Virus record (IMG/VR): IMGVR_UViG_3300009678_001576
Strand: one strand, 5' to 3'
DNA: 64,000 bases
Source: a virus
Below are positions 2,062 through 40,048 of the stretch, in pieces. Position 1 is the stretch's first letter; each line of letters opens with the position of its first letter. The notes under the pieces are model-generated. The model saw only the letters and a program-made list of their open reading frames with translations, was not told the origin of the DNA and made no database searches. Made by a program: the position numbers and the translations under genes.

Positions 2062-2511
2062 TTATTCGACGAGAGCCCCGTCGAAAGGGAGTTTCTCTAC
2101 ATCATCCAATAATTTTGTAGCAGCATCGGTAAGTAATTCTGCAGCTTTGTCTTCTCCATTAGCATCACAAGCATCAGCCATTTTAATTAAAGCACCAATT
2201 GCTGTAGCATAACGATGAACTAATGAGCCAGTGGGCATCTTATTTATGATTTCTATCATCTTCTTTTGATTTTCAATTTCGTTTTCTACAAGAGCGCCAT
2301 CGCCCTGGGATTCGGCAATATATACTGGTTCTGGGTGAGCAAGTTCCATAATATTCTTTTCAGGAGTCTTTAGACGTTTCTCTTCGATAGTTTTCTTATC
2401 TTCTTGGTAGGGATTTGGCGCAGGAGCAGCAGTCTTCTTTAATCCAAGAAGGTCGCCATCCTTAGCAATTTTAGCAAATTCCACCATAACATCAGAATTA
2501 TTCCAATCCAT
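2062..2511 (-). CDS. Scaffold-like leader protein (NSDVMVEFAKI leader, AHP..VE motif, helical tag)
   Basis: ORF track 149 aa; shares motifs with 5442..6230, 3110..4756 and the scaffold C-terminal region. Confidence 0.85.
   Translation of the reverse strand: MDWNNSDVMVEFAKIAKDGDLLGLKKTAAPAPNPYQEDKKTIEEKRLKTPEKNIMELAHPEPVYIAESQGDGALVENEIENQKKMIEIINKMPTGSLVHRYATAIGALIKMADACDANGEDKAAELLTDAATKLLDDVEKLPFDGALVE
2083..2089 (-). promoter_or_regulatory. Candidate -1 frameshift heptamer C CCT TTC
   Basis: Zero-frame CCT TTC re-pairs to CCC TTT, which is the frame of 359..2026. A downstream bulged stem GGGGC-T-CTCGT/ACGAG-GTAA-GTCCC can form. Confidence 0.6.
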
Positions 2512-2513
2512 AA

Positions 2514-3110
2514 TTAGCTCCTATTTTTATCTAGATTACCTAGTAGGTCAACAATATCACCCATATTTTGACCCTGAAACATTTCTTGAACGGCCTCTTG
2601 TCCAACTTCCTTAACCTTTTCTTTAGCGATTCCCTTTACCTTGTTATATATGTCGCCCGTACTAGAAGCCCCAAGTGCCATAGCAATAAACGCAAATGCT
2701 CTTAATATAAGACTTGTTATCATCTTGGCGAGCTTACCTGGGCCGCCGAATAGTCTAAAAATACCACCTAGGCCGGCAACCTTAATCATCTGTCCATTAT
2801 TATCTAATGCAGCTTTAGCCTCTAGCATACCCATAAACAAGTTATTTAGGTTATCAGCATCTTGCGGCGTAACATCACTCTTGGGACCTTTACCTAATTT
2901 CTTATCTAGCCAGGCACCAAAATCTTCTATGCCATAACCAAACCAAGAAGCAAATTTATCGATTAAGGTAAGTAATAGTCCACCAAATCCGGCAAATAAT
3001 ACAGGAGAATAGCTAATGAGCCTGAATAGATTTTCAAAAGGCCCTTCGCTGTCTCGCCATACAACCGAAACTGCTTTCAGTAAATCAGTGTTATCAGCTT
3101 GTCGTTTCAT
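2514..3110 (-). CDS. Hypothetical membrane-associated virion protein
   Basis: 198 aa with two hydrophobic segments (VLFAGFGGLLLTLI; ITSLILRAFAFIAMALGA) and an internal MIKVA motif. Confidence 0.8.
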   Translation of the reverse strand: MKRQADNTDLLKAVSVVWRDSEGPFENLFRLISYSPVLFAGFGGLLLTLIDKFASWFGYGIEDFGAWLDKKLGKGPKSDVTPQDADNLNNLFMGMLEAKAALDNNGQMIKVAGLGGIFRLFGGPGKLAKMITSLILRAFAFIAMALGASSTGDIYNKVKGIAKEKVKEVGQEAVQEMFQGQNMGDIVDLLGNLDKNRS

Positions 3111-4756
3111 TAGAATGAATAGCGCCCTTCTTTAAAATCGTCAGCAATTTCAGACCAACTCCAGTCTCTAGGTGCGCGTGCTCTATACTTTCTATAAATA
3201 TATTCACGCATAGCTTGTTCCGACATTCCCCTATCTTGTAGAAACATATATAAACTAACTTCGCGGCCCGACTTTGGATCGTTCATTATTATTGAGCGCA
3301 AACAAGCAGAAACTTCTTCTGGACTTGGATTCGCTTTGTTAGGATTACACATTACACCTTGAGTGGGGTCTTGTTGTGTTTGTAAATTAGCAGGTGCAGC
3401 AGTACCATCAGCAGAAACTACTTTCTGTAAATAAGAATACAATACCCTTACAGCATCGCTTACATTCTCAGGATTAGACATAACTTTAAAATCTACTATA
3501 GATTTTTCGTCTAAACCAGCATATTTTCTCAAATAGTCATCAAGCTCTGGAGATTTAGCAACCAAACCTGTAAATGCAGCAGCTGTATTAACACCATAAG
3601 CACCGTCTTCCTCTATTCTATCGATACCGGTTTTAAGTGCTATGTTAAGTCGATTTATCAATCTTTGTAAGAGCGTTACTTGTGGATTTTTACCAACCCT
3701 GCCACGAGTTGCACCAGGGGCCGCAGCAGATGGTGGTTCACTGGAGGTTCTAAATGCTCTCTTGGAAATATAAGGTTTGGCGCTAGCAGGCCTATTTCGT
3801 GATGGCTTTGCTTGTTGTTTTGCTTCCATTCTCTGTAAGCTATTTCTCATGCGATCTCGTAGAGCAACCATAGGAGTTACATACTGATTTATTTCTTCTT
3901 CAGTTGCTGATTCATTGATTACCTTATTTACGAAATTTCGCACAACCCTTTCGTCTATGTCGGTTTTTTCATAAATTGGCTTTTCACCAGATTGTTGTAC
4001 TCTGGCCTCAAGAGCGATAATATCCTTTGCTACATCTACCAAATCAACACCAGTTGCTTGACCCTTTTGGGCAATTAATTGTTGAGCAGCTTGTTGTGCT
4101 CGTTGTTTGATATCAGCAAGTTGCTGATTTATAGCAGCAGTAGTTTTAGTTAGAGCGTTTTCAAATTGTGTAATATCTCTTTCGTAAAAAGGATCTGTTA
4201 GCAAAGGCTTAACCTGCGGCCAAGTAAGAGCCATTTGATTCAAGTAAGTAGCTACTCTTTCAATATTTCCTAATTGTTGTCTAGCTTGATTTACGACTTC
4301 GCCAGGCTTATTTGGATCAGGAGCCATCTGTACTTGAAAATATGGAAGAAAGCTAGCAAGGTCCGTCTTCCACTTTTCAACTACGCTTTGAGCATCAGTA
4401 TCTTCATAATCTAGAGCTTCGATTCTTTCTAATAAATCCTTAACCCTATTGTCTGCGAGTCTAGTTCCCTGATAAATAGCAAACGCTACACCACCGGCTA
4501 ATAGTACCCATCCTATAGGGCCACCGGCGATTGCAGCTGCTGCACCAGCTGTTCCAGTTGCCGCGCCCGCACCAGTTAATCCACCGGCAACGCCAAAATA
4601 ACCTAAACCACCCATGAGCCCAACATCTGTTAAGGCAGTTAGACCAAGGCTGTTTGCGACATCTCCCCAGTCCCATGCTTCTTTTATCATAGGAGAGGAG
4701 TAGCCCATTATCTTGGCGTATTCCATCATTATTTCGCTATTTTCAAATTGAGACAT
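3110..4756 (-). CDS. Putative ejection or internal virion protein with a glycine-rich hydrophobic region and a peptidoglycan-binding-like domain
   Basis: NSEIMMEYAKI leader, MIKEA, Gly/Ala hydrophobic stretch at ~4470-4660, ISKRA at 3755-3769, PG-binding-like VTLLQRLIN..EEDGAYGVNTAAA at ~3575-3685. Confidence 0.75.
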   Translation of the reverse strand: MSQFENSEIMMEYAKIMGYSSPMIKEAWDWGDVANSLGLTALTDVGLMGGLGYFGVAGGLTGAGAATGTAGAAAAIAGGPIGWVLLAGGVAFAIYQGTRLADNRVKDLLERIEALDYEDTDAQSVVEKWKTDLASFLPYFQVQMAPDPNKPGEVVNQARQQLGNIERVATYLNQMALTWPQVKPLLTDPFYERDITQFENALTKTTAAINQQLADIKQRAQQAAQQLIAQKGQATGVDLVDVAKDIIALEARVQQSGEKPIYEKTDIDERVVRNFVNKVINESATEEEINQYVTPMVALRDRMRNSLQRMEAKQQAKPSRNRPASAKPYISKRAFRTSSEPPSAAAPGATRGRVGKNPQVTLLQRLINRLNIALKTGIDRIEEDGAYGVNTAAAFTGLVAKSPELDDYLRKYAGLDEKSIVDFKVMSNPENVSDAVRVLYSYLQKVVSADGTAAPANLQTQQDPTQGVMCNPNKANPSPEEVSACLRSIIMNDPKSGREVSLYMFLQDRGMSEQAMREYIYRKYRARAPRDWSWSEIADDFKEGRYSF

Positions 4757-5441: not shown

Positions 5442-6230
5442 CTATTCTTTTTTTTTTAACAGGTTATCCACCTGATTAGCATATTTCTTATAGCCTAACC
5501 TATCAAGGTCATCAGCCAATACAACTAAAACGTGGTTTAATACGTCTTCTGGAGTAGCAACCGCACGTATAATTTCCTTTAGACCATCTAATTTGTCTTT
5601 GTGGCCCATCTTGGCAAGCTTGGTATAAAGATTAACCATCGAAGCATATGTTCCCTTTGGCATTTTCTTAACAACCTCAAGGTCAGCCTTTTGTTGTTCA
5701 ACGATAGTCTCTACTAAATTATCTTTAGTTTTGCTATGAGTTAGCTCAGTTTTGGTTCCGCCACCTGGGTGTGCTTGGTTTACCAAGTCTTCACCAGTTT
5801 CGCCGGTGACATCATATTCTTTGCCTTCTTTGGCAGCCGTAACTACTTCATCACCCTCTACGCTGTTTCTTGATGGTGGCAATTGAGCAACCATAGTCTC
5901 AGCTTCTCCGGCATATTGTGGAGCTAGTAGCTTTGAGACTTGTACTTTGAACGCTGCTATTTCATTAGGATTTTTTGGAAATCGCCTAGAAAGATTAGCG
6001 ACACTTTGATTTATATGCTGATCTAATTCCTTTTTAGCTCGTTGATAGTCGCCCTTATATTTTTCCATTAACTTAGCAGAGAGTTCGTTCAATCGAACAG
6101 CCTCATCATATAAAGGATTTGCGGCCTCTTTTGTCATTTCATCGGAAGCAACTTTGACCAATCCCTGCTCCTGTGCTATACGAGCAAACTCTTTCAACAC
6201 AGTGCTCTCATCGAATTTTATATTTCTCAT
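5442..6230 (-). CDS. Scaffold-like leader protein (ESTVLKEFARI leader, AHPGG..VET motif, C-terminal helical tag)
   Basis: ORF track 262 aa with SD GGAGA; shares motifs with 2062..2511 and the scaffold. Confidence 0.85.
   Translation of the reverse strand: MRNIKFDESTVLKEFARIAQEQGLVKVASDEMTKEAANPLYDEAVRLNELSAKLMEKYKGDYQRAKKELDQHINQSVANLSRRFPKNPNEIAAFKVQVSKLLAPQYAGEAETMVAQLPPSRNSVEGDEVVTAAKEGKEYDVTGETGEDLVNQAHPGGGTKTELTHSKTKDNLVETIVEQQKADLEVVKKMPKGTYASMVNLYTKLAKMGHKDKLDGLKEIIRAVATPEDVLNHVLVVLADDLDRLGYKKYANQVDNLLKKKE
5448..5457 (-). promoter_or_regulatory. Candidate -1 frameshift or transcriptional slippage site (A10 run)
   Basis: TTA AAA AAA AAA GAA TAG. The -1 frame reads KKKRIVVAEEPPAGAEYG into the ATG at 5403. 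An SD-like AGGTG lies 11 nt upstream (5469-5473). Confidence 0.6.
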
Positions 6231-6242: not shown

Positions 6243-6743
6243 TTATTTCTTCTCTGAAATATTTTCTTTCTTAAGTAGCGTCCCTTGCTCGGCAGCAACT
6301 TTAATATTTTTAGCGGCTTGTTCAATTATAAATGCAGTTTCGTGGTCGCCGTGGGCACCAGCAAAATATGCGATACTTTCTAATTTACTAATTACTTTTT
6401 CAGCAAGTTCCATTTGTGAATCCACAACTGGCTCTATTTGCGTTTCTTTCACTTCCTCAGCTTTAACTTCAGGAACTACAACTTCGGCGGTCTTGGCTTC
6501 TAGTAAGTCACCAGGAATTTTAGTCCCTTTTAAAGTGGCAAGTAATACCGAAACGCACTCTAGCATTTGATTTGGATCAGAATAATTATTAGCTACTTGA
6601 ATACCTTTTTCTATGAAGGCATCACAATCTGCCTTGGATAACAATTTGCTGGATACAATTCTATCACGCTCATCGTTAATAAGCGATAAGAATGATTTAA
6701 CAACAAATTGTCGGTCTCCCAAAAGCTCTTCTCTAATACTCAT
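6243..6743 (-). CDS. Hypothetical head-module protein with a divergent helical tag
   Basis: 166 aa, SD GGAGA; KLESIAYFAGAHGDHETAFIIE resembles the shared helix. Confidence 0.8.
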   Translation of the reverse strand: MSIREELLGDRQFVVKSFLSLINDERDRIVSSKLLSKADCDAFIEKGIQVANNYSDPNQMLECVSVLLATLKGTKIPGDLLEAKTAEVVVPEVKAEEVKETQIEPVVDSQMELAEKVISKLESIAYFAGAHGDHETAFIIEQAAKNIKVAAEQGTLLKKENISEKK

Positions 6744-7475: not shown

Positions 7476-7865
7476 TTATTCTTCGTCGGTAGTAGTTTCA
7501 GTCTCTAGGTTTGTAACAAGTACGTTCAAAGCTTCGTCGACCAAACCAGAAGCTTCTGGGGCACCAGCAGCGTCTAATTCATCAGCAAGTTTTACCAACT
7601 CACCAACTACGCCAGCTAATACTTCAGCCTTCTTCTTCTTTTTCTTGGCCTTTGCTTTTGCTTTGTCAGCCTTCTCTTTTTCTTTTTCCTTGTCAGCCTT
7701 GGCCTTATCCTTTTCTTTCTTGGCCATTTCCTTGCACTTGCAGGGCTCTTTGCCGCACTCTTCGCATTTCTCGTCTTCTTTTTCCTTTTTGGCCGCAGTC
7801 TTATCTAAACCATTTCCCAATAGTTTGGATAGCTCAGCTACCATTTCGTCACCCATTCTAGACAT
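7476..7865 (-). CDS. Small Lys/Glu-rich head protein with helical tag
   Basis: ATG at 7865 is preferred over TTG 7871 because of AAGGAG spacing. LDKTA, CEECGKEPCKC, KEK-rich tract, ELVKLADELDAAGAPEASGLVD. Confidence 0.8.
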   Translation of the reverse strand: MSRMGDEMVAELSKLLGNGLDKTAAKKEKEDEKCEECGKEPCKCKEMAKKEKDKAKADKEKEKEKADKAKAKAKKKKKKAEVLAGVVGELVKLADELDAAGAPEASGLVDEALNVLVTNLETETTTDEE

Positions 7866-7879
7866 GTTCAAGCTCCTTA

Positions 7880-9433
7880 TTAATGTTTTAGATTTTGTAT
7901 TACTTCTTCAAGCTTATTCGCTTCGTCTACAAAACCTTTCGTTTTCAAACGAATTGATACTTTGGTTATTATATCTTTGGCCCTTAAAAAAGACAAAGAT
8001 TTTTCATCTTCTTCCTCTTCTTCTTGCTGTAAAGCTTTCTCGAAATCCTTTTGTCGCTGCGTTCGTTCTTTTTCACGCTCAGCTCTTTCTTTTTGTTCCT
8101 GGCGTTGCTCCTCGCGCTCTTGACGACTTTCCATTTTTTCTTCACTAACGTATCGTTGTTTAGATAGTAACTCAAAAATAGCCATGCGTAGAGCTTTAAA
8201 AACTTCTACCGGGTTAGCACCGGCAGTTTCAAATAATACTACTGGTTTAATTTTTGAAGACTTGCCCATAAAGGTAACTGGAAACTTAACCAAGTCAACA
8301 GTATAAATAGGGTTATCTCTAACTTTAGACTCTCCTACTTCAAAACTCCATACGTAATTCGATTCTGTTTTTTGCCAACTTCCCTCTGCTCTATCGAAAC
8401 CCATTCTTGCGCCAGGCAATTCGGCAAGAGCAGCCGATACTTCGTCTGGAATTGGACTGGTTATATAGGTTTGTTCTTCTAACTCTTGTCGTCTTTGGCG
8501 CTCTTGGAAAGCGCGTTCTTCCTCTTCGGTCGGCTCTGGCTCAACTTCAGGTAACTCCATAGGCACATTCATTGATGGGCCGACCGGAGCTTTGGCCGGA
8601 GAAGCTGGAGCAACTGATATATTGGATGGGACTGGAGGCATCGGAATATCAACAGCCTCTTTTAATAGTTTGCCTAATTTTGTTATTGATTCTAGGTCTA
8701 GTTTAGTCATAGAAAGTTTATCCGTACCTTCTTCCTTAAGAAATAATTTTTTAAAGTATGAATCATACTTGAGCATATTCAAATCCGGGTCTTGAAAAAA
8801 GCTATCGGATTGTTTAGCTCTAATAAGAAATACTAATTCGTGTAACCCTGTTCTTAACTCTTCGTCAGATAAAGCACGTAATTTAGTAGAAAAATACTTC
8901 AAGTCGTTAGTAGTCCAACCCAATTGTTTCATGGCTAGCTTGAATAGAGGTACTAGAAGATTAACAAATTCTGGTTTATCAAATATTTGTTTGCGAACAG
9001 CCTCAAGTGGATTCTTTCGTACCAAAGAGCGCCAAGCTGCCTCATCAATTTTACCAAACTCCGGAACATAGTGAAACTTATATTCAAAATATTTCTCTGG
9101 AGTATTTTCAATTATATTCATTAGCATATTGCTGGTAATCTCATTTAACTTACCAACCAAATGATATTTGTGCTTATGAACATATGATTCTGGGTCTTCT
9201 TCAGCCAGAATTTTAGCATTTCGTTTCGATATCCCGTAGCCCTTTGAAACATCAGGCTCATTGTCCTTTCTGCCAGAAATACCGGGAATGTATTCTGGGG
9301 TTCCTTCAAATTGGTCTTCTGGTCTCTTGCCAAATCCAGGTTCAAGTCTTTTCTTGAATTCTGGGTCTAATTCCTTTGCGTCCTGCTCAACCAAGGCAGC
9401 GAATTTTGATAAAATTTCGTCTCTAGTTTTCAT
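7880..9433 (-). CDS. Hypothetical head protein with helical repeats and a C-terminal helical tag
   Basis: 517 aa. PEKYF..PEFGKIDEAAWRSLVRKNP resembles polyprotein repeats. Ends with ITKVSIRLKTKGFVDEANKLEEVI. Confidence 0.85.
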   Translation of the reverse strand: MKTRDEILSKFAALVEQDAKELDPEFKKRLEPGFGKRPEDQFEGTPEYIPGISGRKDNEPDVSKGYGISKRNAKILAEEDPESYVHKHKYHLVGKLNEITSNMLMNIIENTPEKYFEYKFHYVPEFGKIDEAAWRSLVRKNPLEAVRKQIFDKPEFVNLLVPLFKLAMKQLGWTTNDLKYFSTKLRALSDEELRTGLHELVFLIRAKQSDSFFQDPDLNMLKYDSYFKKLFLKEEGTDKLSMTKLDLESITKLGKLLKEAVDIPMPPVPSNISVAPASPAKAPVGPSMNVPMELPEVEPEPTEEEERAFQERQRRQELEEQTYITSPIPDEVSAALAELPGARMGFDRAEGSWQKTESNYVWSFEVGESKVRDNPIYTVDLVKFPVTFMGKSSKIKPVVLFETAGANPVEVFKALRMAIFELLSKQRYVSEEKMESRQEREEQRQEQKERAEREKERTQRQKDFEKALQQEEEEEDEKSLSFLRAKDIITKVSIRLKTKGFVDEANKLEEVIQNLKH

Positions 9434-9660: not shown

Positions 9661-12600
9661 TTACTTCCAGCCCAATGAGCCTAGTTGGTCAACTAAACTA
9701 GATTCTGGGGATGGATTTGCACTTGCAGTAGCGGTCATAGCAGCTGAAGCAGCTTCTAGACCAACTCGTGGAAGGGTTCCGCCCTTCTTTGCGGTTGACT
9801 TGTAGTTTGCAACCACGCGCTTATTTGATTCAAACGCTGCATCATCAAAATGCATGATTTCATCAACATAAGTGTCAAGTGAATCACGAGTGCCGGATAT
9901 TAGTCCTTTTTCTTGAGCCTGTATGGCAATGTCATAAGCTCTTCGTAACTTGAGCTTATAGTTATTGTCAGATGCTTCTTTCTTGCCCTTAGCAAATTCC
10001 TTGCTTAAGTCCGCACCAAAGCTTCCGGCTTGTGGAGCCTGTGCGAAATATTTCTTCCAATAGGCAGCAGCAGCGCTGTCGACTTTGCCTTCTGCAACTA
10101 GTCTCTCAACGTCTTCTGCTTTTACAGCACCTTCAACAATCTTTTCCTGAAGTACGGCTGCGGCTTCACGAACATTACGTGGGCCTGATTCAGCAACGTC
10201 TCTCATTACTTCATGAACTTCAGAAATAGTTTCAACCTTGGCTTCTTGGGTCTTTGTGCTAGTTAGTTCAGTCACAGTTCCCTTTCCACCTGGATGAGCC
10301 TGGAAGTAAGTTGGCTCGGTAGCATTTTGTGCTTTACCTAGGTCCAACTCATATTTACCAAGTACGCCTTCAGCACGAGCAACTAAAGCCTCGCGAGCTG
10401 TTTTGCGTGATGCAACTACTGGAGCGCCTGGAGCCATTCCGGCACCAGCAGCCATTGGGTCAGCAGCCATCATGCAATCTTGAGCATGACCTTCTGGACC
10501 ACAAGCACACATTTCTGGTGCAACGTCTGCCATCATAGCATCATCTTCTTTGTCTTCCTTCTCATCCTCTTCTTCGCCCTCTTCGACTTCGACATCTTCC
10601 TCGTCGTCATCATCCTTTTTCTTGTCTTTAGCCATATCTGCAGCTAAATCAGGATGCATTTTCCCACCTTCTGGGCTCATCTCGGACTTTTCATCCTGCA
10701 AGAGCTTCTTTAGGTCATCTTCAGTCTTTGGATCAAGGGCCAAGTCGGCATCCTCACCATACATACCCATTGCCGCCTTTAATAAAGCTGCGCGATTTTG
10801 TGCGCGAACCTTAAGGGCGTCGTCGAGTAGTTTTTGAGCTTCCGCTTTCTTGTCATCTTTATCTTCTTTCTTGTCCTTCTTGTCTTCCTTTTCTTTCTTC
10901 TCAGCCTTTTCCTCTTTCTTATCTTTCTTGTCGGCCTTCTCTTCTTTGTCTTCTTTCTTATCTTTCTTAGCCTTAGCAGCTTCGATAACTATATTAGCTT
11001 CGGTTAGGACTACGTCGCTATCTGCCAATACATCGGCAGCAGCCTTTAACAACTTATCCTTATTTCCAGCTTCTACTTTATCTAGACCTTCTAGGGTTTC
11101 GCTAACTAATGCAAGTTCATCAGCAGCGTCATTCAATAGTGACTCTACCTTAAGAGCATCTTCACGGAATGATAGAACTTTATCCATTGGGCCCTTTTCG
11201 CCGACATTAACATCAACGTCAACTAAGCCCGAGCCCTCTTTGCCTAATAGGTCACGGAGTTCTGCAATTTTTTCTTCCATTGTGCTTAATGCAGCGTTTA
11301 CTTTTTCAAGATTCACGCCCTCAGCCTTTGGAGCTTCTGCTGGTGCAGCCGCTGGTGCTGGAGGAGGAAGTTCTGCTGCTGGAGCAGGTGCCGCTGGGGC
11401 TGCAGCTTCTGGAGCTGCTGGCATCATTGGGTCTTGTGCGCCCTTCAATAGATATGCTACTTGATCAAAACCTTCTGTACGGATCATCTTAAGAACGTCT
11501 GAACCGTATTGCTTTGAACTAAAGTAATCCCAGTTGTCGTCTAGTTCGTCTTCATAAACTTCGGAACCAGCCGCGCTTAAGATTAATTGGTCGCCAGCGT
11601 AGATGTCCCAACGGGATGCATCTTTTACTAGATTGCCCTTTTGGTCTGCTACTTTAACGAGCTTGGCTCGTAATTTGGCACGTAGCAATTTCTTCTTAAC
11701 TTCCATATCGCCAGGAAATGCGCCATCAGTTCCGCCCATATTGTCGGGGGCCTGCATGTGCTTGTCCTCGTTATTGCGAATCTTATCTGCTTCTTCCTTT
11801 GGATACTTTACTTTGCCTGGGGTCGGTTCATTTAAACCGCCACCACCGAGCCAATAGGCTCTGCGTTTCATTCTACGGTCTTCGAGTTCGGCTGTAGTAA
11901 GACCATCTTGGTTTTCCTCAGCACGTAACAATTTCTTCTTAACTTCTTCGTCACCCGGATGCAGACCTTCGCTACCTGTCTCTAATGGTTCGCCAACCAT
12001 TTGCTTATCTTCACTGTCGCGAATAGAATCGGCATCCTCTTTTTCGTATTTTGGCTTACCTGGGGTTGGTTCATTAACACCACCACCGCCAAGCCAATAT
12101 GCGCGTCGAGCTTTCGCTCTTGCGCGTAGTCTCGCTGAATTCATATTGTTCTCCTCCTTAGAGATTAATGTTTTGAGCTCATTAAAAGCATTGTTCATAT
12201 TTTTTACTTTATTGCGAAGGAGGCTTAACTCTTGTGAGAGTGCATCCTGGGTTAGGTTTTCGCCTCCTACTTTCTGGCTAGCAAATCTTTGAGGAACTTC
12301 TGTCTCAAAGGGCGGCCAACCAACTTTACCGCTATCGTTTTCTAGAGATTGCTTTTCATAGCCTTCTCCACCACCGATAGTGGCTCGTGCGTCATTTGCG
12401 GCAGCAACTGGGGCCGCTTCAGGTGCTGGAACTGGGACAGGAGCCGCTGGTTCCATTAATTCAGATTCACCTAATAGTAATTCTTTAATCTGTGCTTTAA
12501 TCTTTGCTACTTCTTCTTTAGCATTTGGGTCAGTTTCTAAAGCCTTGAGAGCAGCAACTAACTCGCCCAAGTCAGCATTATTAGCAGTCGCGGCCTTATT

Positions 12601-13497: not shown

Positions 13498-14091
13498 TTA
13501 CGCACCCTCTTCTTCTTCAAAAGTTTCGGCTTCTTCGCCTTCAGCCCCCATAAACTCTTTAACTTCTTCTTCGCTTGGGTCTTCTGATTCAAGTGGAGTT
13601 TCTGGTAGTGATTCAACGCCATGAGCAAAGGAAAAGGGGTCACTGGCATTTTGGTCTTTCTTTTCTTCTTTCATTTCTTTCATCTCTGCCTTTAGTCTTT
13701 CTAAATCACCCTTCGATGGCTTTTTACCAAAGCAGAGTTCAAACATTTTTCGATTTGCATCACTCATGCCGCTGTGTAAGCTGTGCATGTCTTGGATAGC
13801 TTGGTCTAAACCAATACCTTTGGCAGAGTCAGCTACGTCAAAATAACGAAGGCGTCTGCGCAATTCCTCTAGGCCGTCCTTTGATTCTTGAAGACTATCA
13901 ACGGCTTTATTTACAAACTTAAGAAAATCCTTCTTAACCTTCTCATCCATTCCTTTTAAAGGTGCTTTGGGACGAGCAGCAAGAGCCTTTATAGTTTCAT
14001 CAACGGCATCTGACAATTCAAATTTACCATCACGGTCATATTTGTCTGCCAATTTAGTCAAGACTGCCAAGTATTTATCTGATTTGTTCAT
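13498..14091 (-). CDS. Hypothetical head protein with N-terminal helical tag
   Basis: 197 aa; VLTKLADKYDRDGKFELSDAVD; the stop abuts the protease ATG. Confidence 0.85.
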   Translation of the reverse strand: MNKSDKYLAVLTKLADKYDRDGKFELSDAVDETIKALAARPKAPLKGMDEKVKKDFLKFVNKAVDSLQESKDGLEELRRRLRYFDVADSAKGIGLDQAIQDMHSLHSGMSDANRKMFELCFGKKPSKGDLERLKAEMKEMKEEKKDQNASDPFSFAHGVESLPETPLESEDPSEEEVKEFMGAEGEEAETFEEEEGA

Positions 14092-28078: not shown

Positions 28079-28359
28079 TATTTCCAACCATTATATCTTT
28101 TGACAAGATATTTGTGTATTTTTACTGCTTTGTTTTTCCAAAAAGCAAGAACCAAATTTTTTTGGTCTTTATTCCTTGCTTCTTCTTTGGTAAAGTTTAT
28201 ACATAGTTCTTCAGAAAATTTAATTACTTCTTCTGCCCTTTGTTTATTCTTTGATATTTCAGCTTCAACAAACGCTAATTCTAAAGCCACAAAGGCCTGC
28301 TTTATACTATATATATTATTATATTCTACCTTTTTTAATACTTTATCCAATGGTATCAT
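28078..28359 (-). CDS. Hypothetical protein (93 aa) between the portal and the polyprotein
   Basis: Starts 4 nt after the portal stop; its stop overlaps the polyprotein ATG. Confidence 0.7.
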   Translation of the reverse strand: MIPLDKVLKKVEYNNIYSIKQAFVALELAFVEAEISKNKQRAEEVIKFSEELCINFTKEEARNKDQKNLVLAFWKNKAVKIHKYLVKRYNGWK

Positions 28360-30384: not shown

Positions 30385-32223
30385 TTACATCCTTGGTAAA
30401 TGTGCCAATATAGGAGCATTAACAGACGCCTTCCCTTGCAAGTGTGGTTTTATATTAAACCCCTTGGTCTGATAAAACTTATATGCCAAATAAGCATACA
30501 TCAAGGCCATAAGTCCGTCATTAGGACTGTTGCCTTTTATGTATCTTGTAATTATTTGTCCTTGCACCGATCGTTCTTCTTTTTCCATAGAGCAACAATG
30601 CTCTATTAACCAGTGTATTCTTTCGAAACTTAGCCATGGAAAAAGAACTTTGCTTCTTCGCATGAGCTTAAAAATATCATCTAAAACTACATGTGGATTA
30701 CAAATTAAACGAATATCATCTTCATCGTATTTATAAGGATTAACTAAACTACCGCTGTTTAAACAGCCAAGAAGTCTAGTGCTATATTCCTTTTGCAATT
30801 CTGGAACAATATCATTTCCGTAGCCTAAGTCGGCCACTGATATTCTAATGTTAAAGCGTCTATACATTTCTGCTATAACTTCTTTCTTGTGTTCCATATC
30901 ATTGCTTTTTAGTTTAAAAGCATTTTCTATTCGTAGTGTGCCAGAGGAATCGGCAGAAATCACAACTATAGAAGAGTATGATTTTCCGGCTGTAGAGGTA
31001 GAATTATCTGCTTTTCCGCCCCAGTCGATTCCCATAAACGTTGGTTGTGCTTCGCTTTTTAGAAAGCCAGAAGCAAGACTTCTATTTGGGTCTTTACAAA
31101 ATTTGCGAATTTCTTCTTCAGACATAGGTAAGTCGGCGCCGCTATAGAATTCGCCCAAAATTTCATTCTTCCAAACACGGTCAGAGTTAGTGGCGTGGTC
31201 ACCTGGCTTTTCCTTCAATACAGTTTCTTTTGTAAAATAAGGAATTAGTAATTGATTAAAATGAAAGCCTACATACAGCGGCTCTTCGCCGTTATCTCTC
31301 TTATGCTTGGTTGGTATCCATTTGCCATTTTCTATAGCATTTACTTTTTCTTGCTGATGCTTGCAGTGTGGGCATTCAACCGTATTACCATATAACCAAA
31401 CTTTCTCCCAATCATCAGTACCCGGAGTATAAAGTTTAAAATGCTGTTTGCATGCCTCACAGCCCAAATGATAAAGCCTTTGGTCCGAGTCCTCCCACAT
31501 CTTATGAAAGTAGGATCCTCTTTGCAAAGGCGTTCCGAAATACAATTGGATCCCACTACCTCGGGGCCCATATTTAGCTGCGGTTAAAGTTCTATTACTA
31601 TTACCAATATCGTCTTGGTGCATATGCTGAACTTCATCATAAAATATACCATCAACGGTCATACCTTGAAGTCTAGAAGCATCGTTAGCATTTGAATCAA
31701 CCAATAAACGATTTTCATACTTAAATTGTTTATTGGTTAGAGTGTCATCTGGTACGTCGAGTCTGCGTTTGCCCGATTTTTCATCATAACCCAAAGACTG
31801 CTTCATTACGTAATTATCAGTTGAAGTACGCATCATTGTACTTAATTTGTCTTTGGCGAAGTTTTGTACCTGAGCTAAAGCAGGAAAGCAGTGTAGGATT
31901 CTAATCGGTGGCTTATCAGGAGAAACGCCAAATAGGCCGCTGGATGTAAAATATAATTCAAGGGCCGCCGCCATTGTGGTAGCACCGACCTGACGTCCTT
32001 TAACACAAACAACTGGCTTACCATCTGGCTCAAGTGCCTTAACAGCAACATATCGATATATATCAGCAAGAAACTTCCAACCAGTATCACTTAATTTAAG
32101 TGGTTTTCCATCAATCGTTAAATAGTTCTCAGCAAAAGATACGGGGTCTATCTTTAAAACTTCTTTTTTGAGATCGTCAAAAAGCTTATCGCTGCTTGAA
32201 AGCGTGTTGTTTCGCCCCGCCAT
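30385..32223 (-). CDS. Terminase large subunit
   Basis: KGRQVGAT (Walker A-like), IFYDEVQ (Walker B), GTP coupling motif, nuclease MGIDWG / VADLG / NDGLMA; CEAC..CPHC insert. Confidence 0.92.
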   Translation of the reverse strand: MAGRNNTLSSSDKLFDDLKKEVLKIDPVSFAENYLTIDGKPLKLSDTGWKFLADIYRYVAVKALEPDGKPVVCVKGRQVGATTMAAALELYFTSSGLFGVSPDKPPIRILHCFPALAQVQNFAKDKLSTMMRTSTDNYVMKQSLGYDEKSGKRRLDVPDDTLTNKQFKYENRLLVDSNANDASRLQGMTVDGIFYDEVQHMHQDDIGNSNRTLTAAKYGPRGSGIQLYFGTPLQRGSYFHKMWEDSDQRLYHLGCEACKQHFKLYTPGTDDWEKVWLYGNTVECPHCKHQQEKVNAIENGKWIPTKHKRDNGEEPLYVGFHFNQLLIPYFTKETVLKEKPGDHATNSDRVWKNEILGEFYSGADLPMSEEEIRKFCKDPNRSLASGFLKSEAQPTFMGIDWGGKADNSTSTAGKSYSSIVVISADSSGTLRIENAFKLKSNDMEHKKEVIAEMYRRFNIRISVADLGYGNDIVPELQKEYSTRLLGCLNSGSLVNPYKYDEDDIRLICNPHVVLDDIFKLMRRSKVLFPWLSFERIHWLIEHCCSMEKEERSVQGQIITRYIKGNSPNDGLMALMYAYLAYKFYQTKGFNIKPHLQGKASVNAPILAHLPRM

Positions 32224-32226: not shown

Positions 32227-33975
32227 TTAGCGTTCCCCATGAGAAATGTAATCCGCCACATTATCTTTATATTCGTCTATATTTCGTAATCCAACTAGAC
32301 CCACTTCTACATGGTCATCATTGGTCATATCGTTCTGGTATGCTTTTTTGCATTCTTCTATATAATTATATAAATCTTGGTTTGAGTATCTGATATCAGA
32401 ATCTCTCAATTTTTCACGAAGAAAGTTAATAATAGAATATGTATTTTTAGTACCATGAGAATGCCTACAGAAACTATCTATAGCATTCTTTAATTCGGGC
32501 TTTGATTCAATTAAGGCAACGATGTCTTGTTTGCTTGCGTGTCGCACAGATATACTAGCCTTGGAATACTTTACTTCTTTAGCAGGTTTGTCTGGACGAA
32601 AGCGAGACCAACCCGCGTGTCTAAACTTACCAGAAGGCATTCTCTCTTGAAAGGAAATTTCTACTACAACGCTCTTTCCGCTGTCGATAACTTTCTTGAT
32701 TTTAGCTTCGTCTTCTTTGGACATACCGCTCAATTTTCCAACCTCAAATAATTCGCTGTCTTTATATTGATACATTGGAAATACAAGTTTATCTTCAGCT
32801 TTATTATATTTGTTTAATACAACTTCGTCTGTTTTGGCTTTAGCTCCTGGCTTAAACTTGGCCCATTCCCCTACAGGTTCATTGCTGCCAACTTTGCCAT
32901 ATTCATAAGTCGAATTTTTTGGTTTTAATACTATGCCTTCAGCATTTACTTTTAGCGCAGTATTAATGGCTTCATCTTTTTGGGCATAAGTATAGTTCTT
33001 TACTAATCTTATATCGCCCTTTGCACCCTTTGTCAAACCTTTTAATATATCATAACGTTCTTCGTATGGTTTTTTTGTTATATCTTTGCCCTTGCTCCAT
33101 AATATATCATAGACATAAAAGACGGGTTTTCCCTTACCCTCTTTGATTTTTTCGTGAGCCTTTTCGGGAGAACTGCCTACAACAGTCTGAATATCAGAAA
33201 TAGATTGTTTGCCCTTTGAGTCCTCCCAAACCAATTCACCTAGAACAAAAGTCCCACTTGGTAAAGTTGAAGCCAAGCCTTTAATAAGGTCGGGAACGTT
33301 TTCAGTAAATTCTTCACCACGTCTTGTATATAATCTGGGTTTGTTATCTTCATTAATAGCCTGAGTTTTAAATCCATCTAACTTCATCTGTACTATGATA
33401 TCACTGTCATCATAGTTTTTGAGCATATCATCTGGACTCTTAAGCTTCTTTAGCTTCATAGGCGCTATAGGAGAAATGCCATTCACAATTCTTTTAGATA
33501 TCTTGCGAACAGATGCTGTTTTGTTTTCCCACTGACGCTCTACTTTAGCATTATCCCATAAAGCACAGCACATTCTTGCTGTTACTGGCAATTGAATATC
33601 TGGATGTTTACAAAAACCCAAACCCTTTTTTGTATTTAGTACTTCAACATACTTACAATTGGCGCAGTTAGTTCCTTCAACTTCGTCAGGTAATATAATT
33701 AAATCTGCTTTTTTGGCCCGATCGAGATCTTTTTCAAGATACTCATATCCGCCACTCTCATTTAACTTGGGCTGCTCTTCTTCTGAGGCCTGTGATATTA
33801 AATTTAAACCAGTTTGTTCTTTATAGTTCGCTATAACATCTGCAACTGTTTCCTTGGCCCTCACTATCTCTGTAGCAGTAGATGGCTGTCCAGCAAGAAT
33901 ACGGAGATATTCCTGAAACCAATCGCCACCCTTTTCTTCTCTAACAAATTCATTACTACGAGATACTTTGGTCAT
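32227..33975 (-). CDS. ATP-dependent DNA ligase domain embedded in a head-module protein, with an upstream Cys-cluster domain
   Basis: KLDG (I), VLGEL (III), FYVYDIL (IIIa), EGIVLK (IV), WAKFK (V), RFRPDK (VI); flanked by ISKRI and ISVRHA; CANC..C..CC.W segment. Confidence 0.9.
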   Translation of the reverse strand: MTKVSRSNEFVREEKGGDWFQEYLRILAGQPSTATEIVRAKETVADVIANYKEQTGLNLISQASEEEQPKLNESGGYEYLEKDLDRAKKADLIILPDEVEGTNCANCKYVEVLNTKKGLGFCKHPDIQLPVTARMCCALWDNAKVERQWENKTASVRKISKRIVNGISPIAPMKLKKLKSPDDMLKNYDDSDIIVQMKLDGFKTQAINEDNKPRLYTRRGEEFTENVPDLIKGLASTLPSGTFVLGELVWEDSKGKQSISDIQTVVGSSPEKAHEKIKEGKGKPVFYVYDILWSKGKDITKKPYEERYDILKGLTKGAKGDIRLVKNYTYAQKDEAINTALKVNAEGIVLKPKNSTYEYGKVGSNEPVGEWAKFKPGAKAKTDEVVLNKYNKAEDKLVFPMYQYKDSELFEVGKLSGMSKEDEAKIKKVIDSGKSVVVEISFQERMPSGKFRHAGWSRFRPDKPAKEVKYSKASISVRHASKQDIVALIESKPELKNAIDSFCRHSHGTKNTYSIINFLREKLRDSDIRYSNQDLYNYIEECKKAYQNDMTNDDHVEVGLVGLRNIDEYKDNVADYISHGER

Positions 33976-33999: not shown

Positions 34000-34317
34000 T
34001 TACATTATTCCAAGAGAAACTTGTATTGCATCCCACTCATCCCCAGTAATAGTAACATCTGGGCCACCATCTGTAAATTTAAGAACAACCTTTTCATCTG
34101 GAGGATTGCCTGATATTTGAACCTCTGCATCATCAGTATATCTTTTCATAATATCATTAAACTGCTGAAATGTTAATGTGGTGCCTTCAACTCGCTCATC
34201 ATCTGGAGAAGTTGCGAGTTTAATTGCAAAATCAATCCTACTTGCGTCGGCATATAAACCACGTTTGTCTAATGAATTGGCAATAATAATTAGATGTTTT
34301 AATATTGATTTATTCAC
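34000..34317 (-). CDS. Small protein with N-terminal helical tag plus K-x-A site
   Basis: GTG start with GGAGA; HLIIIANSLDKRGLYADASRIDFAIKLA. Confidence 0.8.
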   Translation of the reverse strand: MNKSILKHLIIIANSLDKRGLYADASRIDFAIKLATSPDDERVEGTTLTFQQFNDIMKRYTDDAEVQISGNPPDEKVVLKFTDGGPDVTITGDEWDAIQVSLGIM

Positions 34318-35511: not shown

Positions 35512-36135
35512 TTATTTCTTCTTTTTTCTTTTACGCTTACTTATCGGTCTATCGGTTATAGTCTTAATTTTATCCATATGCATATAGGGACTTTCGCCGT
35601 AATCAAAATTTCTACGCCAAAAGTCTGGTAATTCTGGATTTTGTGTCTTTCCTCGCGGCCCCAAATGTCTATCGCGTGCATCCTGATGAACTTTTTTGAG
35701 ATTAGTATAATATTTAGGATCTTCGGAAAGATGGTCTAGGGCTATTTCTTGTGCCATATCTTTATTTCCAGTGTGCTCTAATTCAACTTTAATTCCCATT
35801 TCTAATTGTTTTTGATTAACATCATCTGGCTTTAAATCAGCGCCCAGTCCACCCGGAATTATTTGATCGTCGGCAGCTGCAGGCGGTGCTGGAGTTGTAG
35901 TGGTGACTGGCGGTGGAGCAATAATCATACTTTTCATTTCTCTGGTTTTATCGACTATTACTTTATTCATTGCTACAACGTTTGCATTTAACTCTGATAA
36001 TATTGCTTGTATATTTGGTTGTGGTTGTTTTAACAAATTATTCATTTTAGAAATGTGATTACCAACAGCATCTTGTATGGCTTTTAACTTCAAATCCACC
36101 ATTGTCATTTGTGCTTGGTCTGCTGTTTTTTTCAT
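35512..36135 (-). CDS. Hypothetical protein with a DUF5661-like segment
   Basis: MGIKVELEHT..AQEIALDHLSEDPKYY recalled as the DUF5661 pattern (not searched); MKKTA start, ISKRK end. Confidence 0.6.
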   Translation of the reverse strand: MKKTADQAQMTMVDLKLKAIQDAVGNHISKMNNLLKQPQPNIQAILSELNANVVAMNKVIVDKTREMKSMIIAPPPVTTTTPAPPAAADDQIIPGGLGADLKPDDVNQKQLEMGIKVELEHTGNKDMAQEIALDHLSEDPKYYTNLKKVHQDARDRHLGPRGKTQNPELPDFWRRNFDYGESPYMHMDKIKTITDRPISKRKRKKKK

Positions 36136-36902
36136 TACAACGCCCTCACCAATTGTCGTTTTTGTATCAAAATATCTGAAAGGGTTTTAGTTAAAGGGAT
36201 ATGCGGCAGTAATTTAAACTCTATAAGCATATCAATGCCCTTATCAGCGTCTAGCATAACTATTTCATTTGCTTTGTCTTGAACAAACTTTGTTGGCAAT
36301 TTTTTGATATTCTTTCTGTATTCTAGCATTGCTTGTTTAAGACTTTCTTCAATCTTAAAATCGTATTTAATGGCAAATTTAATAGCTCTCAAAATTCTTC
36401 GCGGATCTACGCCGATAGTTATTCTGGGATCTATTGGGCACTTGATGAGCCCTGCCTGAATATCGCCAATGCCTTCGCCGGTCAAGTCATATATAGTAGT
36501 GAAATCTAAACTCTCTAATAGAGTATTAATTGTAAAATCTCTACTATATATTTCCTTTTTCATAGGCGTAATATCTTTAATGCCCAATCTTTTTAATTCT
36601 TTATCGATTCCTGGTGCTAGAAAGTTGCTGGAAAAATCAATGTGAAGGCTCATAATATCCAATGAAGTATGTCCATCATCGTAAGTTCTTAAGTTGCTAT
36701 CTGGATATTTTCGATTAATAGCAAATGCTAACTCAATAGCATCTTTGTCTCCAGTAGTTATATCAACATCCGCAATTTCTGATATCTTGCCTTTTCGACC
36801 AAGCATACGATCTCTTGGAACACCGCCAACTATGAAAGGGGTATTTATATTATTGGCCTTTGCAATTTCTCCAATATCCAGTAAGAGTTCGTTGATATTC
36901 AT
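36135..36902 (-). CDS. Stand-alone CCA/poly(A) polymerase-family nucleotidyltransferase
   Basis: IVGGVPRD, DVDI, SRDFTIN, DPRRILRAIKF. Confidence 0.88.
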   Translation of the reverse strand: MNINELLLDIGEIAKANNINTPFIVGGVPRDRMLGRKGKISEIADVDITTGDKDAIELAFAINRKYPDSNLRTYDDGHTSLDIMSLHIDFSSNFLAPGIDKELKRLGIKDITPMKKEIYSRDFTINTLLESLDFTTIYDLTGEGIGDIQAGLIKCPIDPRITIGVDPRRILRAIKFAIKYDFKIEESLKQAMLEYRKNIKKLPTKFVQDKANEIVMLDADKGIDMLIEFKLLPHIPLTKTLSDILIQKRQLVRAL

Positions 36903-36910
36903 ATTACTCC

Positions 36911-38020
36911 TTACTTAACTGGAGGTAATTTGGTTTGTATCTGGCCGGCGGGCGCTTGCATTAGTTCGTCCTTATTAACTTTCTCTTTTTTGGGCGCCGC
37001 TGTAGGTTCTGGGAAAGGAGCAGTAACCGGAATTGGCTCTGGTTTTGCTGAGCCGCTCCCTCGCAGTTTCGCTATAACGCCCTCGATTCTATTACTTGAG
37101 TAGCCATAAGCCTCAATTAGCTTGGCTTGAGCATCTGTTACTTCGGTGAAATAACTGGCAAGACCCATCTCATTTAAAAGAATATCTACGCTAGCTAATT
37201 CGCGAACAGTGGTTCTAGACTTAAGACGCTTGCTAATTCCTTCAAGTCGAGTAATTACTGTCTGAAGATTTACATTCATGCCACCTGCTGCCTCGGGCGC
37301 ATTTGTGGTTCCGGCCGGCAAAGCCTGAATTACTTCAGTTGCTGATGGAGGAGCCATAGGTGCGGTAGCCGCTGGAGGAGCGGCTGGTGGATCTTGAGCG
37401 ATTTTATTTAGAAAGTCGGCGCCTTCGACAAAGCCAAGTTTCTGTAACTTATTAGCACTACGAACAGTGCAATCAACCATAGAAGCATATACTTCTAAAC
37501 GAGTTATGTTACGGTCTAAGTTAAATAATTCTTGATAGATTGCATCTAAACTGGACTTAGGCATAACTTCATTAAACCTATCAACGAGTCTCTTTAGTGA
37601 CTGCAAACGTGATTTCATCTGGCCCTTAAACTTTTTGGCTTTATCCATCTCTAATTCACGTTGTGTTTTTTGTGGTGTTCTTACTGCGCTTGGTGGGGCA
37701 AACTGGGTGCGATTTGCTGGATTAATCCATTGCTCCAATAGAGGAGATGCTTCTGCCGAAAGTGCTGTTTTAAGTAAGTTGGCGTTTTTCACGTTGTATT
37801 TCTCCGGAGTTCCTGATTCGTAATATCTCATCCAATTTAAAAAGCTTACCTTTTCATTAGGTTCCCAATTAGCCGTGCAATTCTTAATGGCATCTTCTTG
37901 CCCAATACCATCGCGCATAGAAGAATATATTTCTTTTAAGACAGCTACCCACTTGGCAGTATCGTACTTGGGGCCAGTCGAACTAATACCAGATATATTT
38001 GGGTGGGCTTTTTTGTTCAT
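36911..38020 (-). CDS. Hypothetical head protein with internal helical tag
   Basis: 369 aa; RSANKLQKLGFVEGADFLNKIA; ISKRL; Pro/Ala linkers. Confidence 0.85.
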   Translation of the reverse strand: MNKKAHPNISGISSTGPKYDTAKWVAVLKEIYSSMRDGIGQEDAIKNCTANWEPNEKVSFLNWMRYYESGTPEKYNVKNANLLKTALSAEASPLLEQWINPANRTQFAPPSAVRTPQKTQRELEMDKAKKFKGQMKSRLQSLKRLVDRFNEVMPKSSLDAIYQELFNLDRNITRLEVYASMVDCTVRSANKLQKLGFVEGADFLNKIAQDPPAAPPAATAPMAPPSATEVIQALPAGTTNAPEAAGGMNVNLQTVITRLEGISKRLKSRTTVRELASVDILLNEMGLASYFTEVTDAQAKLIEAYGYSSNRIEGVIAKLRGSGSAKPEPIPVTAPFPEPTAAPKKEKVNKDELMQAPAGQIQTKLPPVK

Positions 38021-38754: not shown

Positions 38755-38760
38755 ATTTAT

Positions 38761-39381
38761 TTACCTTATGGTGACACTCTTGCCAGGCAATTCATGTATT
38801 CTTCCGCCAGAATAATACTCTTCTTGTATTTGATCTGGGGTCTTCTTTTTAATAGCAAGATATTCATTATATCGTTCTGGGTAATCCTTTCTCAATACAC
38901 TTAAATGAAAGTTATTTCGTTCAAGGTCTTTCTTATAAGCCATAAGTTCAATTTCCAATCTTCTTAATTGATCGTGTAATTGTGTAATTTCGGCTGGATT
39001 TTGCGCACGCTGTAATTTTTGGTCAGTAACTTTAATATCTTGTTGAATATTTTTAATATCATCTTGTAAAGTTCTAATATTTTCAACCAATACAGCTGGG
39101 TGAACTTTATATTCCGGTGGCTCAAATACGGGCGGCTGATGCGGCTTCTTAGGCTCAGTTTGTAATTTATCTATAGTTCTCTTAACCATATGCATAACTA
39201 GATTTTTAGTATCTAAAGAAACAGATTGTGCCAAGTCAGCACTCAACATATTCATAAGTGCTGCTGGATCAACCCCTTCACCTGCTTGCTTAATGAGACA
39301 GTCTAATTCATTTGCCTCTTTATGAAGTCCGGCATGGTCAAGCATATCAGCTATGTCTATGAGTTCCGAAATATAATTCAT
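38761..39381 (-). CDS. Coiled-coil protein with N-terminal helical tag plus K-x-A site
   Basis: ELIDIADMLDHAGLHKEANELDCLIKQA. Confidence 0.85.
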   Translation of the reverse strand: MNYISELIDIADMLDHAGLHKEANELDCLIKQAGEGVDPAALMNMLSADLAQSVSLDTKNLVMHMVKRTIDKLQTEPKKPHQPPVFEPPEYKVHPAVLVENIRTLQDDIKNIQQDIKVTDQKLQRAQNPAEITQLHDQLRRLEIELMAYKKDLERNNFHLSVLRKDYPERYNEYLAIKKKTPDQIQEEYYSGGRIHELPGKSVTIR

Positions 39382-39382
39382 A

Positions 39383-40048
39383 TTAACCCTTCAGATTCAT
39401 TATATTTTCTCTAGTATCAAAGAGCCTATGTGGTATGGCATAGTCGGTAGAGCCTGGTGTTTGACCGGCTACTGAACCGCCTGGGTGCTTATTACCGTCA
39501 TAATCTTCCCATCCTGCCTCCCAATTATATATCTTGCCATCTAGGGCGCATTGATAGGTTAATTCCCCAACACGTCCTAAGGAAACACCAATGTGCTCTG
39601 GGCAGTGTCGAGTATTAAGCGCAGTTACATTAGTTTGTTGATAGGTATGGACGTGATGATTTTTAACACCCTCACGATCAACCCTTTCTTGTTCGCGCTT
39701 TGGCTCTCTTATCTGTTGTGAATGATGGAAGTCACTGTCATAACGTTTAGATTGCTCGGTGCTTTTATCTTCTTCCTTCCACTTCATAACATCTTCAGCT
39801 GTCTTCTTGATAAAATTATCTACCAAGTCAGCCTCTTTATTAAGACCAATGCCATCTAGCTTGTCAGCAACACCAGATAGCTTATCCAATACCGCCTCTA
39901 ATGTTACGGCAGTATTGGCTATTTCAGCTACAACAGGTTCTTCTGCTGGAACATCAGTCTCTGTAAGCATATTCATCAATGCTTTAGCATCTTCCTCGGC
40001 GCCGTTTTCTTTTAGAAAATTGGCCAGTTTGACTAATTCGTCATTCAT
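39383..40048 (-). CDS. Protein with two helical tags and a C-terminal Cys/His domain
   Basis: ELVKLANFLKENGAEEDAKAL; GVADKLDGIGLNKEADLVDNFIKKTA; RHCPEH..YQC. Confidence 0.85.
   Translation of the reverse strand: MNDELVKLANFLKENGAEEDAKALMNMLTETDVPAEEPVVAEIANTAVTLEAVLDKLSGVADKLDGIGLNKEADLVDNFIKKTAEDVMKWKEEDKSTEQSKRYDSDFHHSQQIREPKREQERVDREGVKNHHVHTYQQTNVTALNTRHCPEHIGVSLGRVGELTYQCALDGKIYNWEAGWEDYDGNKHPGGSVAGQTPGSTDYAIPHRLFDTRENIMNLKG

Follow-up and report, generated by a model that had tools for sequence, protein, structure and literature searches.

Why should eleven proteins that have little else in common, encoded around the head genes of a very large uncultured phage, carry one and the same short helical motif? 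The question was raised by a sequence-only reading of 64,000 nucleotides from the IMG/VR virus record IMGVR_UViG_3300009678_001576 (the whole stretch is called the window below), which described a motif of about 21 residues in otherwise unrelated head-module proteins, often followed by a K-x-A site, and took it for a portable helix-turn-helix tag that docks on the scaffold or the inner capsid. The window is part of a 468,446-bp metagenomic contig, ENA ERZ27267619 k141_116371, from an uncultured relative of Bacillus phage G, and all of its genes are on the minus strand. Our analysis shows that the tag is real, widespread in metagenomes and previously undescribed. It is about 30 residues long and, judging from structure prediction, most likely a mobile protein-interaction domain in the form of an acidic alpha-helical hairpin. 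As for its role, we give an even chance to the proposal that it is a head-loading or docking tag comparable to the capsid-targeting sequence (CTS) of T4 and of a new structural type.

Copies were sought by regular expression and then with a profile built from the clear copies; a broader profile adds the sequences of relatives. Both profiles agree on 13 strong copies in 11 proteins, all on the minus strand between 2.1 and 40.0 kb, and in a six-frame scan matches fell solely in the coding frames of that strand. Profiles made with one protein left out recovered 11 of the copies at 14-32 bits, the other two being marginal at about 7 bits (those in the protein encoded at 2062-2511 and at the N-terminus of the protein encoded at 39383-40048). 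The most deflationary explanation would be that the copies resemble one another owing to the composition of amphipathic helices, or because they were duplicated locally in recent times, and have no function in common. The copies are indeed short and helical, and of the 17 sites listed in the sequence-only reading two found no profile support and two proved weak. However, the shuffle, leave-one-out, masking and conservation controls already refute this explanation, and we regard its residual probability as negligible. Among 6,800 shuffled proteins the top score was 9.1 bits, well below the 14-32 bits of the left-out copies; residues D12, G15, A20 and D24 are near-invariant in 267 metagenomic instances from proteins less than 50% identical to each other; the flanking sequences are unrelated; and the motif persists among relatives with portals of just about 50% identity. 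The claim that the carriers are otherwise unrelated holds once the tags are masked, with one exception. The 149-aa and 262-aa proteins have a second common region, which is also found in the C-terminal part of a 1278-aa protein described below (A-H-P-(G-G)...T-E-L-T...V-E-T, E 1e-5; sites at 2228-2400, 5650-5800 and 10180-10300).

On these non-homologous proteins the tag may be N-terminal, internal or C-terminal, as the portable tag of the sequence-only reading should be (coordinates are given for the minus strand; scores are profile bits, followed by the leave-one-out score where there is one). At the N-terminus it occupies residues 4-38 of a 274-aa protein encoded at 17450-18274 (tag at 18161-18265; 42.3 bits, leave-one-out 25.1), where it ends in LIKEA; residues 6-40 of a 105-aa protein at 34000-34317 (34198-34302; 42.5 bits, leave-one-out 18.7), ending in AIKLA; residues 4-38 of a 206-aa protein at 38761-39381 (39268-39372; 49.5 bits, leave-one-out 26.7), ending in LIKQA; and, close to the N-terminus, residues 8-42 of a 197-aa protein at 13498-14091 (13966-14070; 35.9 bits, leave-one-out 14.3). 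Two proteins have a pair. The 118-aa protein at 18286-18642 opens with tandem copies 37 residues apart, at residues 2-36 (18535-18639; 45.0 bits) and 39-73 (18424-18528; 39.2 bits, leave-one-out 16.8), followed by a lysine-rich tail. The 221-aa protein at 39383-40048 begins with a divergent copy, with K for D12, at residues 2-36 (39941-40045; 35.1 bits with the broad profile, leave-one-out 7.0), and has a second at residues 54-88 (39785-39889; 43.1 bits) that ends in IKKTA. Internal copies are found at residues 135-169 of a 263-aa protein at 14988-15779 (15273-15377; 43.1 bits, leave-one-out 27.8) and at residues 98-132 of a 251-aa protein at 15781-16536 (16141-16245; 42.0 bits, leave-one-out 31.9). 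In a 131-aa lysine/glutamate-rich, scaffold-like protein at 7476-7871 the tag lies in the C-terminal part (residues 89-123, 7503-7607; 30.9 bits, leave-one-out 24.7), and in a 262-aa protein at 5442-6230 it forms the C-terminus itself (residues 232-262, 5445-5537; 25.4 bits, leave-one-out 19.4). The last strong copy, divergent and followed by LPF, is at residues 105-139 of the 149-aa protein at 2062-2511 (2095-2199; 28.7 bits, leave-one-out 7.2).

The remaining sites of the original list fared less well. Those at 7900-7965 and 37410-37470 are weak: the first is a de-acidified copy at the C-terminus of a 517-aa glutamate-rich protein encoded at 7880-9433 (7883-7978; 6.2 bits), and the second is an internal copy ending in LNKIA in a 369-aa protein at 36911-38020 (37373-37477; 3.8 bits, not significant alone). 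Both fit the pattern of hydrophobic and small residues and are missing the acidic signature. The sites at 15520-15590 and 6310-6390 have no profile support, and by eye only they may pass as degenerate hairpins.

Two of the carriers call for a side comment. The 221-aa two-tag protein represents a conserved core family, with a C-terminal domain of about 130 residues that is 40-74% identical in 39 members, has conserved Cys and His residues and ends in R-x-F-D-x-R; in the AlphaFold2 model it is a small domain of beta structure, and its weak structural neighbours are of the rubredoxin or zinc-ribbon-like type. The 149-aa open reading frame (ORF) and the next one, of 555 aa (359-2026), are in separate frames here. 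In several of the relatives L096-L112 one ORF, 415-534 residues long, covers both, and its tag, with LPF after it, is near residues 130-170. This is consistent with a frameshift, programmed or in error, or with a gene split.

What kind of module is the tag? The profile of the 267 metagenomic instances reads h1-x-x-L4-h-K-L7-A8-[N/D]9-x-L11-D12-x-K-G15-L-x-K-E19-A20-[D/N]-x-h23-D24-x-h-I27-K-K29-x-A31, where h is a hydrophobic residue; past column 31 the sequence is acidic and unconserved. The mean net charge is -2.4, with D12, E19 and D24 near-invariant. AlphaFold2 was run with family alignments on the 221-aa protein and on the 118-aa tandem pair, and the helix-turn-helix of the sequence-only reading reappears in the models as a two-helix hairpin. 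Each tag of the 221-aa protein is modelled as helix-turn-helix with a predicted local distance difference test score (pLDDT) of 78-89: the first as a helix at residues 2-14, a turn and a helix at 18-30, the second as helices at residues 50-66 and 70-87 (pLDDT 84-89). The two tags do not pack confidently on the rest of the protein (predicted template modelling score, pTM, 0.31), which is as expected for an independent module. The sequence has no counterpart in the collections searched. No Pfam family covers the tag in ten carriers, or in 89 metagenomic ones, and no PHROG family corresponds to it; a profile search of the PDB gave nothing under E 0.6, and a feature search of the ESM Atlas gave no usable match. 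The two AlphaFold2 models likewise found no significant match in the PDB (Foldseek), in PDB representatives (VIA) or in BFVD. Helix-hairpin-helix, SAP/Rho_N-like and EF-hand modules were ruled out by inspection, on grounds of wrong spacing, a short loop, the acidity of the tag and the lack of Pfam hits. In the case of the EF-hand, the turn at G15 is about 3 residues long and there is no Asp ladder, as compared with the 12-residue D-x-D-x-D-G loop; the only hints of it were two weak Pfam matches among the 89 proteins and one PDB match at E 1.6.

The weak structural neighbours that did surface are helical-repeat proteins, including a designed tetratricopeptide repeat (TPR) protein and the TPR of OGT, at Foldseek E 0.5-3 and VIA Z<=8.1, within the noise that the tool states for helical models. 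They bring up the main rival to a docking tag, namely that the hairpins bind one another as orphan TPR-like units, stacking or bundling in trans, and that multi-tag proteins cross-link single-tag ones into a core or scaffold mesh. It overlaps with the docking proposal on location, differs from it in mechanism, and does not exclude it. The TPR signature positions are 4, 7, 8, 11, 15, 17 and 20, and by inspection the conserved L4, L7, A8, L11, G15, Y17 and A20 of the tag coincide with them: both are helix-turn-helix units about 34 residues in length, in which positions 8 and 20 are small, positions 4, 7 and 11 are large and hydrophobic, and position 15 is Gly. Moreover, the number of conserved hydrophobic positions in each helix exceeds what a hairpin of two helices would require by itself. 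Proteins with two or three tags are found in many relatives, frequently with a tag at either end, and a distinct tandem class repeats with the 34-41-residue period of TPR arrays; the 118-aa tandem pair was modelled as a four-helix unit (pLDDT 75, pTM 0.50). On the other hand, D12, E19 and D24 lie outside the TPR signature, and the tag is usually a single unit, not an array of at least three, most tagged proteins having just one. No Pfam TPR model reached E<=1 in ten tag-bearing proteins, the structural matches are below the noise level, and the two tags of the 221-aa protein are not confidently packed together. On balance we consider self-binding unlikely.

Beyond the window, the profile matched 3,586 of 1.84 billion representatives of metagenomic clusters (formed at 50% identity) at E<=0.001, and 172 of them at E<=1e-10, which bears out the portability of the tag on a much larger sample. 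Matches with a single tag mostly start at residue 2. Many other metagenomic proteins have two or three tags, some with one at each end and some in tandem at a 34-41-residue period. Of 80 related loci, 44 have a tag close to the portal, and four large relatives have 4-15 tags each. In contrast, the profile found none in phage G itself, in Tunturiibacter phage Tunturi_5, in LR745208 or in Rctr197k, and a tblastn search with the tandem tags and a consensus-like tag against 50,697 phage records returned no match; by these searches no cultured phage has it. The distribution of the tag is limited to very large phages that form an uncultured clade, with Bacillus phage G as a relative. Closer relatives of the window than phage G are numerous: IMG/VR has them in the hundreds, on contigs that reach 442 kb.

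The location of the tags within these genomes is the first argument for a role in the head. The left two thirds of the window encode TerL (the large terminase subunit, 30385-32223), the portal protein (28363-30375; PHROG portal, E 9e-51, and 34.7% identity to the phage G portal), a DNA ligase, a giant protein of 2962 aa (19199-28087) and the 1278-aa protein (9661-13497). The last is a fusion of prohead protease and scaffold, since its N-terminal 250 residues match the PHROG 'head maturation protease' (E 5.5e-12) and, over residues 33-253, phage G gp19 (33% identity, E 9e-29), and its C-terminal part matches phage G gp21; it is the likely processing enzyme of the head and also a candidate docking partner of the tag. 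The gene for the major capsid protein (341 aa, 54.6% identity to phage G gp27) lies 1.7 kb past the left end of the window. All copies flank TerL, the portal gene and the protease/scaffold gene, and the region they occupy includes the interval between the portal region and the capsid gene. The fusion itself has no tag by profile scan. C-terminal tags are found on charged proteins, that is, on the 131-aa protein and, in weak form, on the 517-aa protein, whose gene is the second after that of the fusion; a clear tag closes the protein encoded after the fusion in relatives L022 and L027. A replication and recombination module fills the right third (42-64 kb), with a RecA/UvsX-like recombinase, DNA polymerase, sigma factor and SbcC, and no tag was found in these 22 kb. 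Nor was there one in G005, a 96-kb contig that has an identical capsid gene at its start and extends away from the window. A distance of 45 kb from the capsid gene takes in eight of the nine tags of the complete 442-kb genome G008 (P about 1e-7) and all six of G007 (P about 4e-6). Here and in close relatives, then, the profile scan confines the tags to the head-assembly region.

The second argument comes from the end of the tag. The K-x-A site said to follow many copies is well supported in the larger sample: at profile columns 27-31 the pattern [ILVMF]-x-K-x-[ASG] is present in 44% of the tags at N-termini and 47% of those at internal sites, the background being 0.4% per position. Taken together, 108 of 236 N-terminal or internal tags have it as opposed to 1 of 31 C-terminal ones (Fisher P 9e-7), so the fold does not need the motif, which is kept where polypeptide follows. 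Outside the tags, h-x-K-[TR]-A occurs 19 times in head-region proteins where 2.4 would be expected (maximum of 8 in 300 shuffles), with no enrichment in the replication module, and it is 5-12-fold enriched in the portal loci of 16 of 16 relatives. The portal has two conserved instances of h-x-K-T-A, at residues 13-17 and 96-100, within an otherwise variable N-terminal region. The capsid protein has IVKYA at its residues 22-26, inside an N-terminal extension, with K24 and A26 invariant, and in about 22 of 27 protease/scaffold fusions h-x-K-x-[AS] stands just after the protease domain. In the giant protein this short motif, with which many tags finish, is present eight times as [IL]-S-K-R-A. It is at such places that the prohead proteases of other phages cut, and for this reason h-x-K-x-A is probably a recognition and cleavage site of the resident prohead protease.

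Put together, the two arguments lead to the proposal that the tag is a head-loading device. The hairpin would dock its carrier on one partner, shared by all carriers, as the prohead assembles; the candidates are the core of protease and scaffold and the inner surface of the capsid shell. A varied set of proteins would in this way be built into the head. Where polypeptide follows the tag, the prohead protease would cut at h-x-K-x-A after assembly, taking off the tag and releasing the cargo. A broader conjecture, which strikes us as rather improbable, makes the hairpins multivalent 'stickers', orphan units of TPR-like type stacked on each other, by which single-tag cargo, linkers with two or three tags and tag-ended scaffolds would self-organise into the core of a megaphage head. 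One module would then govern the choice of proteins for packaging as well as the construction of the core in a very large capsid, and cuts at h-x-K-x-A would dissolve the network at maturation.

Several observations sit badly with the head-loading proposal, which draws on context and analogy. K-x-A is in register in just 4-5 of the 13 window copies, and the segment may be no more than the last part of helix 2. Internal, tandem or both-end tags go beyond what a simple address label at the N-terminus would call for. Moreover, G009, which has the same order of head genes and a capsid protein of 75% identity, has just degenerate, de-acidified hairpins at the equivalent places, so that a strict, conserved pairing of tag and receptor is not universal in the clade; the weak copies in the window are probably of this degenerate kind. 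The label 'head module' fits the tags around the head genes and does not extend to the carriers at 34-40 kb, whose neighbours are the DNA ligase, a nucleotidyltransferase of the CCA-adding type and a DUF5661 gene, not recognised head genes. Finally, the distant relatives G002, G003 and G004 have few tags near the portal. Most of their tagged genes are separated from those of portal and capsid by 60-120 kb and belong to clusters of unassigned function, which consist of small acidic genes of diverse kinds, each opening with a near-identical tag at residue 2.

It is chiefly these distant clusters, set amid unannotated small ORFs, that keep alive a rival in which the partner of the tag is outside the virion (a host protein, a replication or transcription factory, a chaperone or a degradation machine) and the clustering near head genes reflects shared late expression. 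The nucleic-acid enzymes beside the 34-40 kb carriers point the same way, as does the fact that Pfam and PHROGs recognised no structural-protein domain on any carrier. Against this rival stand the strong concentration of tags by the capsid gene in close relatives and their absence from both the 22-kb replication module and the 96 kb past the capsid gene. Furthermore, scaffold-like proteins beside the protease are tagged at their C-termini, and the end of the tag is tied to a motif that portal and capsid proteins keep in their N-terminal parts and that is conserved, too, where protease passes into scaffold. The T7 capsid-assembly family, in addition, was matched by one of the tagged metagenomic proteins. 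We therefore find a partner outside the virion a doubtful explanation. As to the make-up of the distant clusters, PHROGs recognised almost nothing among their larger untagged neighbours, and in the G004 cluster no common promoter was evident upstream of the tagged genes. Residues 1072-1125 of the giant protein have a counterpart of 54 residues in G004, in a protein that stands alone and has its tag at the N-terminus; this common module speaks for the head-loading proposal.

How would a head-loading tag of this sort compare with known systems? The nearest is the CTS of T4, found on IPI, IPII and IPIII and on Alt as propeptides that the prohead protease gp21 takes off. For T4 both packaging and cleavage are proven; for the tag of the window they are proposed. 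A linear peptide of 10-19 residues at the N-terminus, the CTS is cut by gp21 at L/I-x-E, and T4-like phages carry varied proteins behind CTS-like sequences (PMC9026906). The likeness lies, first, in a common tag on unrelated, fast-evolving small proteins (here 13 copies on 11 proteins, with one related pair); second, in a short motif after the tag that is found also at other places typical of maturation cleavage, with a prohead protease encoded nearby; and third, in related phages that carry varied proteins behind the same tag, as in the gene clusters of the distant relatives. Unlike the CTS, the tag of the window is a folded two-helix hairpin of about 30 residues with no sequence likeness to it. 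It occurs also internally, at the C-terminus, in tandem and at both ends, and it finishes in h-x-K-x-A rather than in L/I-x-E. Because of the hairpin fold, the acidity and this lack of sequence likeness, we read it as a new structural variant of head-loading tag.

The scaffolding protein of P22 offers a second comparison. Its coat-binding domain acts via basic residues that contact the coat N-arm, and it is found on a single scaffolding protein. Like the tag, it is a small helix-turn-helix, in this case one that docks a protein inside an HK97-fold shell, and C-terminal copies of the tag on charged, scaffold-like proteins near the protease gene recall this arrangement, with the difference that most copies here are on other proteins. 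The C-terminal helix-turn-helix coat-binding domain of P22-type scaffolding proteins has also served to load foreign cargo into P22 capsids (for P22 see PMC9965877, PMC12005531, PMC9962691, 10.1101/2022.12.13.520362). In contrast to that basic domain, the tag is acidic and is present on many non-scaffold proteins. The searches gave no PDB sequence match under E 0.6 and no significant structural match, bearing in mind that short hairpins are hard to match. The cargo-loading peptides of encapsulins provide a third comparison. They are short, extended tags that stand at either terminus and bring several cargoes into an HK97-fold shell, and in this they resemble a single portable tag on different cargoes at either end. 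They are not helical hairpins, however, no protease removes them, and the shells are non-viral.

If the head-loading proposal is right, one small profile would read from sequence which proteins are packed into the heads of uncultured phages of 300-470 kb, and presumably injected. Such a reading is now impossible for any phage of this clade, of which no member has been cultured. A folded, acidic hairpin, usable at either end of a protein or internally, would then join the T4 CTS, the propeptides of the phiKZ type, the P22 scaffold domain and the encapsulin peptides, and h-x-K-x-A would be a candidate cleavage motif for prohead proteases of the phage G type. Loading of foreign cargo with the tag is conceivable. 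Whatever its function, a domain found in 3,586 clusters and having no Pfam or PHROG entry merits definition as a family.

Some features of the neighbouring genes deserve mention in their own right. The major capsid gene is at L086:12664-13686, and within the clade its product keeps 72-100% identity. Set against phage G gp27, the protein shows an N-terminal extension of 44 residues, in which I-V-K-Y-A is invariant. This extension was considered as a receptor for the tag and rejected: it is missing in phage G, which has no tags, and it is near-unchanged in G009 despite the degenerate tags there, so that there is no co-variation signal. The 1278-aa fusion has two tandem repeats of about 75 residues, R-R-A-Y-W-L-G-G-G-G-x-N-E-P-T-P-G-K...K-K-K-L-L-R-A, which are kept in relatives and read A-Y-[YH]-Q-G-T-E-E-P-T-P-G-K-P-Q-Y in the G009 version; it also has a long lysine/acid-rich stretch. 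Its scaffold segments at residues of about 450-700 and 1176-1240 are conserved in relatives that bear tags. The nucleotidyltransferase of the CCA-adding type (36135-36902) and the DNA ligase, which is ATP-dependent (32227-33975), lie between tagged genes and TerL, and the order is the same in G009.

Motifs of the form [IL]-S-K-[RL]-A, of which the giant protein has its eight, are found also once in a 548-aa protein (3110-4756), at residue 76 of the portal, and at residues 3-7 of both a Nudix hydrolase (16914-17450) and its 122-aa neighbour, where a cut would remove almost nothing. In G002, the tagged protein encoded at L082:12145-12654 has a hydrophobic segment right after its tag that ends in a lipobox-like A-S-G-C, which suggests a membrane or lipoprotein carrier. 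As for the hosts, the capsid gene occurs in three metagenome-assembled bins, two of which are Bacteroidota, and this is a weak hint that Bacteroidota are infected; the long contigs bearing the capsid gene (L174-L176) were binned as Bacteroidia, Chitinophagales and Candidatus Berkiella.

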